Shown: in pieces, positions 1,233 through 19,792 of the stretch
Layout of the letters: each line of letters starts with the position of its first letter
Numbering within the stretch: the stretch's first letter is position 1
DNA from: a virus
Taxonomy: Duplodnaviria; Heunggongvirae; Uroviricota; Caudoviricetes
DNA length: 49,246 nucleotides
Virus record (IMG/VR): IMGVR_UViG_637000105_000003
Direction: 5' to 3' (one strand)
Position numbers and translations under genes: made by a program
Notes under the pieces: generated by a model
Told to the model about the DNA's origin: nothing
The model's database searches: none
What the model saw: the letters and a program-made list of their open reading frames with translations, nothing else

Positions 1233-1286
1233 TGAACCGCCCCGGGAATCCTGGAGACTAAACTTCCTGAGAAAGAGGTAAACAGG

Positions 1287-1613
1287 ATGACTAAAAATAC
1301 TCGTTTTTCCCCCGAAGTCCGTCAACGGGCAGTCCGTATGGTTCTGGAAAGTCAGAGCGAATATGACTCACAATGGGCGACAATTTGTTCCATTGCTCCA
1401 AAGATTGGCTGTACGCCGGAGACTCTGCGTGTCTGGGTTCGCCAGCATGAGCGGGATACCGGGGGCGGTGATGGAGGGCTCACCACCGCTGAACGTCAGC
1501 GTCTGAAAGAGCTGGAACGTGAAAATCGTGAACTGCGCCGCAGTAACGATATCCTTCGCCAGGCTTCCGCTTATTTTGCGAAGGCGGAGTTCGACCGCCT
1601 CTGGAAAAAATGA
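1287..1613 (+). CDS. IS629 transposase OrfA (HTH DNA-binding part)
   Basis: 108-aa [19 protein letters not shown]...; ends in A6 run where -1 frameshift into orfB is expected. Confidence 0.9.
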
Positions 1614-2500
1614 TGCCACTGCTGGATAAGCTGCGTGAGCAGTACGGGGTCGGACCGCTATGCAGCGAACTGCATATTGCCCCGTCAACGTATTACCACT
1701 GTCAGCAACAGCGACATCATCCGGATAAACGCAGTGCCCGTGCGCAGCGCGATGACTGGCTGAAGAAAGAGATACAGCGCGTATACGATGAAAATCACAA
1801 GGTATACGGTGTGCGTAAAGTCTGGCGTCAGTTGTTACGGGAAGGTATCAGAGTGGCCAGATGCACTGTGGCACGTCTCATGGCGGTTATGGGACTTGCC
1901 GGTGTTCTCCGGGGTAAAAAGGTCCGTACGACCATCAGCCGGAAAGCCGTTGCCGCAGGCGACCGCGTAAACCGTCAGTTCGTGGCAGAACGACCTGACC
2001 AGCTGTGGGTGGCTGATTTTACTTACGTCAGCACATGGCGGGGCTTCGTCTATGTGGCGTTCATCATTGATGTGTTTGCCGGATACATCGTGGGGTGGCG
2101 GGTCTCATCGTCCATGGAAACGACATTCGTGCTGGATGCACTGGAGCAGGCGTTATGGGCCCGTCGACCGTCCGGCACGGTCCATCACAGTGATAAAGGT
2201 TCTCAGTATGTATCGCTGGCCTACACACAGCGGCTTAAGGAAGCCGGATTACTGGCATCAACAGGAAGTACAGGCGACTCGTATGACAACGCGATGGCGG
2301 AGAGCATCAATGGTCTTTACAAAGCGGAGGTAATACACCGTAAGAGCTGGAAAAACCGTGCAGAAGTGGAACTGGCCACACTCACGTGGGTGGACTGGTA
2401 TAACAATCGACGATTGCTGGAAAGGCTGGGCCATACTCCTCCGGCAGAAGCAGAAAAAGCTTATTATGCTTCCATCGGAAACGATGATCTGGCAGCCTGA
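1610..2500 (+). CDS. IS629 transposase OrfB (DDE integrase-like catalytic part)
   Basis: 296-aa ORF overlapping orfA in -1 frame; rve-type DDE region (…HSDKGSQY…DNAMAES…). Confidence 0.9.
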
Positions 2501-2542
2501 GTTCACAGATAAAACACTCTCCAGGAAACCCGGGGCGGTTCA

Positions 2543-2683
2543 ATCATCCAGTAGCGACCAACTTTTATAGCGGGTGGGGCCATCATTTTCCCTTGCGCGT
2601 ATTTTTTCAGAACTCGCTCACTTGGTGCTAAGTCCCCAAATTCTTCTTTAGCCCAGTCCTGTAAAGTGATTAGTCGAGACATT
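2543..2683 (-). pseudogene. xis: Excisionase, N-terminal part truncated by IS629
   Basis: Minus-strand ORF MSRLITLQDWAKEEFGDLAPSERVLKKYAQGKMMAPPAIKVGRYWMI running directly into the IS629 right end. Confidence 0.65.
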
Positions 2684-2821
2684 TGTCCTCCTCTTAGCTG
2701 CTGAGGGAGTTTGTGACCGATATATCTGACATGATATTAAGCTCATGGCAGGTACATCTCTTGACTGGTCATAGAGATAAATTTAATGCTGAGAAATGCA
2801 GTATTGAATTTATCAATTTTT

Positions 2822-3061
2822 CTATTTCCTGCGTATGGCACGTAACTTCTTAATGTGTTCTGCTGTTTCGATCTCTTCAGCTATCCGATCTGCGTCAGCT
2901 TTATTCACAGGTTCAAAGTCATGATTAAAGCGGAACATGCTGGCGATACATGTTCTGCCTTTTCGGATGTAGTGAACTTTGTTGTGAGTGGAACGCAGGA
3001 TTTTGCAGGGAGTGCCGTGGTGGTCGACGTACCAGGTGTTAGGGTAAATCACTCTGAACAT
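2822..3061 (-). CDS. Hypothetical small basic phage protein (79 aa)
   Basis: ORF in early-left orientation with weak RBS; no recognisable motif. Confidence 0.4.
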   Translation of the reverse strand: MFRVIYPNTWYVDHHGTPCKILRSTHNKVHYIRKGRTCIASMFRFNHDFEPVNKADADRIAEEIETAEHIKKLRAIRRK

Positions 3062-17421: not shown

Positions 17422-18119
17422 AAAACATCGCCGCACAGATGGTTAATTTTGACCGTGAGCAGATGCGTCGGATCGCCAACAACATGCCGGAACAGTACGA
17501 CGAAAAGCCGCAGGTACAGCAGGTAGCGCAGATCATCAACGGTGTGTTCAGCCAGTTACTGGCAACTTTCCCGGCGAGTCTGGCTAACCGTGACCAGAAC
17601 GAACTGAACGAAATCCGCCGCCAGTGGGTTCTGGCTTTCCGGGAAAACGGGATCACCACAATGGAACAGGTTAACGCAGGAATGCGCGTAGCCCGTCGGC
17701 AGAATCGACCATTTCTGCCATCACCCGGGCAGTTTGTTGCATGGTGCCGGGAAGAAGCATCCGTTATCGCCGGACTGCCAAACGTCAGCGAGCTGGTTGA
17801 TATGGTTTACGAGTATTGCCGGAAGCGAGGCCTGTATCCGGATGCAGAGTCTTATCCGTGGAAATCGAACGCGCACTACTGGCTGGTTACCAACCTGTAC
17901 CAGAACATGCGGGCCAATGCGCTGACTGACGCGGAATTACGACGCAAGGCTGCCGATGAACTGACCTGTATGACAGCGCGAATTAACCGTGGTGAGACGA
18001 TACCTGAACCAGTAAAACAACTTCCTGTCATGGGCGGCAGACCTCTAAATCGTGTTCAGGCGCTGGCGAAGATCGCAGAAATTAAAGCTAAGTTAGGACT
18101 GAAAGGAGCAAGTGTATGA
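17418..18119 (+). CDS. P: Replication protein P (DnaB helicase loader)
   Basis: 233 aa, lambda P-like by recollection; overlaps O stop. Confidence 0.9.
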   Translation: MKNIAAQMVNFDREQMRRIANNMPEQYDEKPQVQQVAQIINGVFSQLLATFPASLANRDQNELNEIRRQWVLAFRENGITTMEQVNAGMRVARRQNRPFLPSPGQFVAWCREEASVIAGLPNVSELVDMVYEYCRKRGLYPDAESYPWKSNAHYWLVTNLYQNMRANALTDAELRRKAADELTCMTARINRGETIPEPVKQLPVMGGRPLNRVQALAKIAEIKAKLGLKGASV

Positions 18120-18406
18120 CGGGCAAAGAGGCAATTATTCATTACCTGGGGACGCATAATAGCTTCTGTGCGCCGGACGTTGCCGCGCTAACAGGCGCAA
18201 CAGTAACCAGCATAAATCAGGCCGCGGCTAAAATGGCACGGGCAGGTCTTCTGGTTATCGAAGGTAAGGTCTGGCGAACGGTGTATTACCGGTTTGCTAC
18301 CAAGGAAGAACGGGAAGGAAAGATGAGCACGAACCTGATTTTTAAGGAGTGTCGCCAGAGTGCCACGATGAAACGGATATTGGCGGTATATGGAGTTAAA
18401 AGATGA
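18116..18406 (+). CDS. ren: Ren (Rex exclusion relief), 96 aa
   Basis: Lambda Ren-like by recollection; overlaps P stop. Confidence 0.8.
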   Translation: MTGKEAIIHYLGTHNSFCAPDVAALTGATVTSINQAAAKMARAGLLVIEGKVWRTVYYRFATKEEREGKMSTNLIFKECRQSATMKRILAVYGVKR

Positions 18407-18497
18407 CCATCTACATCACTGAGCTAATAACAGGCCTGCAGGTTGAACCGCCCCGGGAATCCTGGAGACTAAACTTCCTGAGAAAGAGGTAAACAGG

Positions 18498-18824
18498 ATG
18501 ACTAAAAATACTCGTTTTTCCCCCGAAGTCCGTCAACGGGCAGTCCGTATGGTTCTGGAAAGTCAGAGCGAATATGACTCACAATGGGCGACAATTTGTT
18601 CCATTGCTCCAAAGATTGGCTGTACGCCGGAGACTCTGCGTGTCTGGGTTCGCCAGCATGAGCGGGATACCGGGGGCGGTGATGGAGGGCTCACCACCGC
18701 TGAACGTCAGCGTCTGAAAGAGCTGGAACGTGAAAATCGTGAACTGCGCCGCAGTAACGATATCCTTCGCCAGGCTTCCGCTTATTTTGCGAAGGCGGAG
18801 TTCGACCGCCTCTGGAAAAAATGA
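18498..18824 (+). CDS. IS629 transposase OrfA
   Basis: Identical translation to 1287..1613. Confidence 0.9.
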
Positions 18825-19711
18825 TGCCACTGCTGGATAAGCTGCGTGAGCAGTACGGGGTCGGACCGCTATGCAGCGAACTGCATATTGCCCCGTCAAC
18901 GTATTACCACTGTCAGCAACAGCGACATCATCCGGATAAACGCAGTGCCCGTGCGCAGCGCGATGACTGGCTGAAGAAAGAGATACAGCGCGTATACGAT
19001 GAAAATCACAAGGTATACGGTGTGCGTAAAGTCTGGCGTCAGTTGTTACGGGAAGGTATCAGAGTGGCCAGATGCACTGTGGCACGTCTCATGGCGGTTA
19101 TGGGACTTGCCGGTGTTCTCCGGGGTAAAAAGGTCCGTACGACCATCAGCCGGAAAGCCGTTGCCGCAGGCGACCGCGTAAACCGTCAGTTCGTGGCAGA
19201 ACGACCTGACCAGCTGTGGGTGGCTGATTTTACTTACGTCAGCACATGGCGGGGCTTCGTCTATGTGGCGTTCATCATTGATGTGTTTGCCGGATACATC
19301 GTGGGGTGGCGGGTCTCATCGTCCATGGAAACGACATTCGTGCTGGATGCACTGGAGCAGGCGTTATGGGCCCGTCGACCGTCCGGCACGGTCCATCACA
19401 GTGATAAAGGTTCTCAGTATGTATCGCTGGCCTACACACAGCGGCTTAAGGAAGCCGGATTACTGGCATCAACAGGAAGTACAGGCGACTCGTATGACAA
19501 CGCGATGGCGGAGAGCATCAATGGTCTTTACAAAGCGGAGGTAATACACCGTAAGAGCTGGAAAAACCGTGCAGAAGTGGAACTGGCCACACTCACGTGG
19601 GTGGACTGGTATAACAATCGACGATTGCTGGAAAGGCTGGGCCATACTCCTCCGGCAGAAGCAGAAAAAGCTTATTATGCTTCCATCGGAAACGATGATC
19701 TGGCAGCCTGA
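18821..19711 (+). CDS. IS629 transposase OrfB
   Basis: Identical translation to 1610..2500. Confidence 0.9.
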
Positions 19712-19792
19712 GTTCACAGATAAAACACTCTCCAGGAAACCCGGGGCGGTTCAGGTAATCGCAGGCCTTTTTATTTGGGGGAGAGGGAAGTC

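Follow-up and report, generated by a model that had tools for sequence, protein, structure and literature searches.

Two insertion sequences (ISs) of the same type bracket the early region of a phage genome in the window, i.e. the whole stretch of 49,246 nucleotides analysed here. This raises the question of how the pair arose, in which host, and what it may mean for the phage that carries it. The features that bear on the answer are collected in Table 1.

Table 1. Features at and between the two insertion sites (positions in the window)
Feature	Position	Strand	Evidence or remarks
Tyrosine integrase (int), phage-21/icd type, intact	1..1143	-	99% identical to AF017626 'phage 21 int'
xis 3' fragment, C-terminal ~31 codons	1133..1232	-	RefSeq pseudogene 'excisionase, missing N-terminus'; overlaps int start
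Left target duplication (TSD) ATC of copy 1	1230..1232 (right TSD 2543-2545)	.	flanks and empty site
IS629-group (IS3 family) insertion sequence, copy 1, complete	1233..2542	+	100% identical to copy 2; absent at the PhiR57_1 site
orfA of copy 1, 108 aa, HTH_Tnp_1	1287..1613	+	PF01527, E 7e-13
ALIL frameshift-stimulating pseudoknot, copy 1	1568..1684	+	RF01497, 120 bits vs gathering score 50; also in RefSeq
orfB of copy 1, 296 aa, rve DDE integrase core	1610..2500	+	PF00665, E 8e-28; also PF13276
xis 5' fragment, codons 1-47	2546..2682	-	ORF 2503-2682 runs into the IS right end, 12 foreign codons
ISEc10 (IS21 family, istA/istB), 2409 bp	5436..7844	-	TSD AGTTGCT, 5429-5435 and 7845-7851
ren, last gene within the bracket	18116..18406	+	ORF and RefSeq
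tR2-type hairpin, left half	18432..18443	+	stem AGGCCTGC 18432-18439, loop AGGT, left TSD GGT 18441-18443
IS629-group insertion sequence, copy 2	18444..19753	+	orfA 18498-18824, orfB 18821-19711, ALIL 18779-18895
tR2, right part	19754..19776	+	TSD GGT 19754-19756, loop remainder, half-stem GCAGGCCT 19761-19768, T-tract TTTTATTT
ninB, first gene past the bracket	19793..20233	+	domain search and RefSeq

The repeated element and the prophage that carries it

The first-pass annotation described two apparently identical IS copies in direct orientation encoding the same OrfA and OrfB, and full nucleotide alignment bears this out: exact-match extension gives 1310 bp with 0 mismatches (100%), from which the identity of the encoded proteins follows. 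The identity of the copies ends exactly at both boundaries, and a perfect repeat of 1310 bp makes a chance origin impossible.

The element shows all the hallmarks of the IS3 family, namely overlapping orfA and orfB, a frameshift signal, TG...CA inverted repeats and a target duplication of 3-4 bp. As read from the coordinates, orfB is offset from orfA by 323 nt, which places it in the -1 frame, and the slippery run GGAAAAAATGA is located at the orfA stop. Both the A6 slippery run and this stop are covered in copy 1 by the ALIL pseudoknot (RF01497), which scores 120 bits in either copy, and the RefSeq label for copy 1 is 'IS3 family transposase, programmed frameshift'. These sequence signals predict a programmed -1 frameshift producing OrfAB. 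The terminal inverted repeats match at 14/14 and then 23/25 positions, the left end TGAACCGCCCCGGG... pairing with the reverse complement of ...CCCGGGGCGGTTCA.

By sequence, the element belongs, as a complete IS3-family IS, to the IS629/IS1203/IS3411 isoform group, whose 1310-bp length, 0/-1 frames, A6 run with ALIL, rve core, inverted repeats of ~25 bp and 3-bp TSD it shares. By ISfinder convention, isoforms are roughly at least 95% identical in nucleotides. Identity is 96.3% (1261/1310) to an O157:H7 copy annotated as 'IS629 transposase', with 104/108 matching residues in OrfA and 288/296 in OrfB, and 96.2% to 'IS1203v'. Published IS629 subtypes differ by 4-5%, a range inside which 96.3% falls, and IS629 generates target duplications of 3-4 bp (Rump et al., PMC3271280). 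The name 'IS629' is thus valid at the level of the isoform group only, with IS629, IS1203 and IS3411 all candidates, and PGAP calls the element just 'IS3 family transposase'.

The presence of IS629 had been taken as a hint at an O157:H7 host, a suggestion that has to be abandoned. Among 5426 complete genomes, the three assemblies of Escherichia coli CFT073 are the only ones to match the left junction of copy 1 exactly, and likewise the only ones to match the right junction of copy 2. In 3/3 of these assemblies the left junction of copy 1 and the right junction of copy 2 lie 18,915 bp apart. The IS allele is widespread, with 100% identical copies in many unrelated E. coli strains and plasmids, including human and poultry isolates, and a near-full-length relative is present in 3042/5426 of the complete genomes. 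The CFT073 element is not of the sequence subtype of the O157:H7 Stx-phage copies compared, to which it is 95-96.3% identical; with copies in other Stx2a/Stx2c/Stx1a-converting phage records, compared irrespective of host serotype, it reaches 99.2-99.5%. An O157:H7 origin was therefore rejected on the CFT073-only junctions, the widespread allele and the 3.7% divergence from the O157 copy compared.

The window matches a CFT073 assembly at 99.95% over all its 49,246 bases, with the differences clustered at Ns. CFT073 is a uropathogenic (UPEC) strain of serotype O6:K2:H1 (PMC2785843), and its RefSeq record places the prophage next to icd, which lies directly upstream, with xis annotated as two pseudogene halves. 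The window is very probably the lambda-like prophage beside icd in this strain, approximately PhiR57_1/ev017 plus three ISs; this confidence is a joint one and covers the source, the independent insertions, the hits in xis and tR2, and the deletion substrate.

The third IS, ISEc10, was absent from the first-pass account: it splits ea22 inside the bracket and has a TSD of 7 bp. The prophage is otherwise near-identical to sequenced phage genomes. The deposited PhiR57_1 genome includes sitABCD, and CFT073 is collinear on into these genes; the late genes of the prophage include iss and a porin gene. In the literature library searched, nothing specific turned up on how this icd prophage of CFT073 excises or is induced, nor on ev017/PhiR57_1.

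Two insertions or one

The flanks read ...GGTCAATC-IS-ATCATCCAG... at copy 1 and ...CTGCAGGT-IS-GGTAATCGC... at copy 2, which confirms the matched 3-bp duplications reported for each copy, ATC/ATC and GGT/GGT, also when checked against the empty sites of PhiR57_1. Where the two share segments, this phage runs collinear with the window at 99.8-100% identity, and it carries neither IS; its empty site at copy 1 reads GGTCAATCATCCAG, 3 bases shorter than the joined flanks of the window. In the near-identical phages PhiR57_1 and ev017 the empty sites have ATC and GGT only once each, and the uninterrupted int-xis site is found in 1620/5426 genomes. The individual TSDs together with these empty sites demonstrate two independent simple insertions, in agreement with the first-pass view that inter-IS recombination was not involved. 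The pair very probably results from two separate copy-out/paste-in events of one 1310-bp IS3-family element, both on the + strand. The perfect identity of the two copies says little on their timing, since many unrelated strains also carry this allele at 100% identity.

Two identical, directly repeated ISs with DNA between them also recall a composite transposon, in which both ISs and the intervening 15.9 kb would have entered the prophage together, and there is a precedent for such an arrangement: IS3411, an isoform of the IS629 group, was originally described at the ends of a transposon for citrate utilisation. However, the outer flanks differ (ATC before copy 1, GGT after copy 2), each IS is flanked by a TSD of its own rather than the whole unit by a single duplication, and the interior is a normal xis-to-ren early region, collinear at 99.8-100% with the IS-free PhiR57_1/ev017. 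A composite origin, with hardly any probability left to it, was rejected because the outer flanks do not match and relatives have the sites empty. Just as implausible is an IS repeat misplaced or duplicated in the contig by assembly. In the window, Ns and small indels cluster at 9326-9430, 15466-15592 and 36635-36876; these signs of an older, lower-quality sequence would favour such an artefact, but both copies are found in three independent complete CFT073 assemblies with 100% identical junctions and equal spacing, and the 3-bp duplications are clean at both sites relative to the relatives; the agreement of the three assemblies led us to discard it.

Genes and signals at the insertion sites

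Copy 1 interrupts xis and lies, in antisense orientation, between the early promoters and int, so that int is now separated from pL/pI. The bracket accordingly opens inside xis, since copy 1 lies in this gene, and not at the Ea22 region as first annotated. The intact Xis of PhiR57_1 has 78 aa and copy 1 cuts it after codon 47, so that the truncated product of the window reads MSRL...RYWMI+EPPRVSWRVFYL before the stop. With xis cut at codon 47 of 78, the CFT073 prophage is predicted to be excision-defective, although Xis from another CFT073 prophage could act in trans. In established lambda genetics, xis-defective lysogens replicate in situ when induced, without excision. The CFT073 prophage resembles lambda xis mutants in its truncated Xis and transcriptionally separated int, and differs from lambda in having an integrase of the phage-21/icd type, not of the lambda attB type.

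Copy 2 interrupts the tR2 intrinsic terminator in the ren-ninB interval, where it sits within the 8-nt loop and is oriented along the direction of pR transcription. As in the lambda nin region, the ren-ninB spacer, 98% identical to lambda 40539-40670, contains the tR2 hairpin. The empty site forms an 8-bp stem followed by a T-tract (MFE -16.9 kcal/mol), and this stem is split in the window. Copy 2 would therewith destroy the tR2 hairpin, and the N-antiterminated early-right transcript would gain 1.3 kb, with polarity on Q as a putative functional consequence. Late transcription downstream and phage production were not lost when IS629 lay in stx2 (PMC7430833). Unlike lambda xis mutants or the nin5 deletion, the lesions in CFT073 are IS insertions, not point mutations or deletions.

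The insertions might be adaptive rather than neutral decay, the loss of xis locking a cargo prophage (sitABCD, iss/bor, ompC-like porin) into the UPEC chromosome, with recurrent ISs in int/xis. Such a scenario would draw on the sitABCD genes of the PhiR57_1 genome, into which CFT073 is collinear, on iss and the porin in the late region, and on independent IS629-type insertions in the same module, in int of EC38 (TSD ATA) and upstream of xis in Z1323HEC0011; a further independent insertion nearby lies in ren of SCU-306 (TSD CGG). Against it, an IS lies within 700 bp in just 6 of the ~1626 genomes with the int-xis module (in this orientation), with no enrichment over what a prophage-loving IS would give, and we consider adaptation improbable. 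In O157, 62% of the IS629 copies sit in prophages (PMC3271280). The idea that insertions favour int/xis or ren/ninB as a hot-spot was likewise considered and dropped: with 6 of ~1626 carriers having an IS in reach, and with a search that joined same-strand pieces only, no claim about orientation or hot-spots is justified.

The segment between the copies

Their direct orientation at a start-to-start distance of 17,211 bp makes the two copies a substrate for RecA-dependent deletion. The loss of about 17 kb foreseen in the first-pass annotation would be exactly this distance, starting in the 5' portion of xis and extending up to and including ren, and this segment contains N, cI, cro, cII, O and P. 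The deletion would leave int-'xis-IS-ninB...late genes, and recombination, N, immunity and replication functions would be lost with it. This predicted 17,211-bp deletion was not found in any of the 5426 complete genomes, including the three CFT073 assemblies. The same kind of deletion end-product occurs in O145:H28, where a different prophage has the order int-xis-hyp-IS-'ren-ninB, with unmatched flanks (GGA/ATT) and no target duplication. In contrast to this deletion joint with a single IS, CFT073 keeps both parental insertions with their TSDs. As for IS629 in the Sp prophages of O157:H7, the ISs lie within prophage genes and form direct repeats that may serve as deletion substrates; unlike in Sp decay, the strain is a UPEC and the remaining prophage is near-identical to sequenced phage genomes. 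In O157, a direct repeat of 822 bp mediated a prophage deletion of 47.7 kb (PMC7430833).

A more speculative possibility, which we regard as very unlikely, is that the 17.2-kb segment forms a RecA-excisable circle, a lambda-dv-like replicon or 'translocatable unit' that could persist as a plasmid or re-insert at another IS629-type copy; the IS ends have matches at ~9 places in CFT073. Its cargo would be one IS plus cI-cro-cII-O-P and, by analogy with lambda, an origin inside O. If true, the circle would allow immunity and replication functions to travel without the rest of the phage.

In any case, the source strain of the window is identified and the inference of an O157:H7 host corrected. Both insertions are ordinary prophage decay, with RefSeq annotation already present, and of little import beyond annotation; the broken xis explains why the CFT073 prophage is likely locked in place. 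Finally, CFT073 and O145:H28 offer a clean example of the 'before' and 'after' states, respectively, in the IS-mediated loss of a lambdoid early region.

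The two IS copies and their independence

A repeat scan of the window found a single long direct repeat, formed by copy 1 and copy 2, which are identical over 1310 bp, with the match ending exactly at each boundary upon exact-match extension. The flanks of the copies read ...GGTCAATC[IS]ATCATCCAG... and ...CTGCAGGT[IS]GGTAATCGC..., giving 3-bp target duplications (ATC/ATC and GGT/GGT, respectively). The element itself shows TG...CA termini and inverted repeats matched at 23/25 positions. The extension, flanks and ORF content thus confirm exactly the two elements described in the first-pass annotation.

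Coordinates and properties of the IS elements and their components
Feature	Position	Strand	Details
Copy 1	1233-2542	+	in xis
Copy 2	18444-19753	+	in the ren-ninB spacer
orfA (both copies)			108 aa; HTH_Tnp_1
orfB (both copies)			296 aa, -1 frame; HTH_21 + rve
ALIL frameshift pseudoknot (both copies)			spans A6 run and orfA stop; RF01497, 120 bits
ISEc10	5436-7844	-	7-bp TSD AGTTGCT
EC38 IS	L003 (AF017626.1) 623-1932		insertion maps to window 450-452, beside icd
O145:H28 joint IS	L005 (NZ_CP028379.1 836675-842381) 1391-2700		whole early region gone, single IS at joint

Over its first 25 kb, the window is collinear with the phages PhiR57_1 (PV340572) and ev017, with aligned segments 99.8-100% identical, three insertions aside, and PhiR57_1 also aligns with the late region (24949-49246) at 99.8%. 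Both of its empty sites, GGTCAATCATCCAG for xis and CTGCAGGTAATCGC for the ren-ninB spacer, fall exactly 3 bases short of the window flanks joined end to end, so that copies 1 and 2 are two simple insertions, as had been argued from their matched duplications. An origin of the two copies through inter-IS recombination is rejected by these same empty sites, and composite transposition is ruled out by the unlike outer flanks (ATC vs GGT). The int-xis site occurs without interruption in 1620 of the 5426 genomes.

By sequence comparison, the element is a complete IS of the IS3 family and belongs to the IS629 isoform group; it is to be named at the isoform-group level only. Copies annotated as IS629 or IS1203v in O157:H7 phages share 96.0-96.3% identity with the window element (for Stx2a_F723, 1261/1310 nt, OrfA 104/108 and OrfB 288/296), and those in other Stx2a/Stx2c/Stx1a-converting phage records reach 99.2-99.5%. 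Rump et al. reported IS629 subtypes 4-5% apart, with IS1203 and IS3411 counted as isoforms (PMC3271280). Copies with 100% identity are present in many unrelated chromosomes and plasmids, near-full-length relatives in 3042/5426 genomes, and the presence of this IS carries no lineage information.

The host strain

Among the 5426 complete genomes, the left junction of copy 1 (400 bp) occurs as a single 100% piece only in three CFT073 assemblies, and the right junction of copy 2 likewise, with a junction-to-junction spacing of 18,915 bp in 3/3. Strain CFT073 is uropathogenic, has serotype O6:K2:H1 and carries five cryptic prophages (PMC2785843), so the O157:H7 host hinted at previously was wrong. 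The full window aligns with NZ_CP051263.1 at 99.95%, and the differences concentrate near ambiguous bases (9326-9430, 15466-15592 and 36635-36876), clusters made of Ns and single-base indels relative to this newer assembly, which marks the window as an older or lower-quality CFT073 sequence. The second cluster falls within cI and makes the window gene look fragmented (ORFs 15058-15480 and 15562-15765), a matter of sequence quality, not biology; the RefSeq cI is an intact 231-aa LexA-family repressor. RefSeq places the prophage immediately after icd. Its annotation lists an integrase, an excisionase whose two pseudogene halves flank an 'IS3 family transposase (programmed frameshift)', and the lambdoid early region; an identical transposase recurs between ren and ninB.

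Effects on prophage genes and neighbouring insertions

Copy 1 reduces the 78-aa Xis to residues 1-47 plus 12 IS-derived codons and also separates int from the early promoters, in antisense orientation. In lambda, Xis is needed for excision, so the prophage is predicted to be excision-defective and locked in place. The ren-ninB spacer that received copy 2 is 98% identical to lambda 40539-40670, and its empty site forms a hairpin (8-bp stem with 6 GC, 8-nt loop, TTTTATTT tail; -16.9 kcal/mol) that we take to be lambda tR2. The GGT target is within the hairpin loop, and the insertion has therefore left 1313 bp between the half-stems. Copy 2 is oriented along pR transcription; a strong polarity on Q would not be a given, since in O157 both late transcription downstream and phage production persist when IS629 interrupts stx2 (PMC7430833). 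A third IS inside the bracket, the 2409-bp ISEc10 (IS21 family, istA/istB), splits ea22. The first-pass annotation had the bracket structure and the coordinates of both copies right, and overlooked the xis hit, the terminator loop and ISEc10.

Other, independent IS hits occur nearby: in ren of SCU-306 (window 18239-18241, TSD CGG), about 88 bp upstream of xis in Z1323HEC0011, and in the phage-21-type integrase gene of EC38, where a 100%-identical IS lies in the opposite orientation (TSD ATA). The EC38 integrase is 99% identical to the window int, so the int/xis module was struck there in a separate event. These few insertions, against ~1620 intact modules, do not establish a hot-spot or selection at int/xis or ren-ninB.

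Deletion between the copies and prophage decay

Recombination between the two copies would remove 17,211 bp, in agreement with the ~17 kb predicted earlier, with the loss of exo/bet/gam, N, cI, cro, cII, O, P and ren. What would remain is int-'xis-IS-ninB...Q, lysis and late genes. This joint was absent from all 5426 complete genomes searched by junction. A different prophage of O145:H28 (RM9872 and relatives) shows precisely this layout, with int, xis, one small ORF, an IS 99.5% identical to the window element, ren from codon 7 and ninB. The IS flanks are unmatched (GGA/ATT), a pattern expected from either IS-IS recombination or IS-mediated adjacent deletion. This prophage offers a natural example of the type of deletion predicted for the window, which keeps both copies. 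Prophage deletion via repeats is documented in O157 (PMC7430833).

As for the rest of the prophage, Lambda_thermo (cIII thermoregulator, RF01804; 88.5 bits) maps to 11322-11380 on the - strand, upstream of cIII, as expected in lambda. In RefSeq, the side tail fibre gene (window ~46,600-48,300; CFT073 record 1452216-1453877) is broken into an N-terminal pseudogene and a separate fibre-domain ORF, and the stf of PhiR57_1 is one 2061-nt gene; the broken CFT073 stf may be another prophage lesion. The window ends at 49246, before sitDCBA. The deposited PhiR57_1 genome includes the sitABCD iron/manganese transporter, and CFT073 runs collinearly into sitABCD (compared DNA records L007, 27350-30401, and L011, 24399-27848). 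Beyond the window end the prophage probably continues, with sitABCD as cargo together with iss/bor and an ompC-like porin.

Overall, the initial reading was mostly right in structure, wrong about the host and incomplete in gene-level effects. The CFT073 genome was sequenced in 2002 and both IS copies are in the existing annotation; the feature is ordinary, IS-driven prophage decay.
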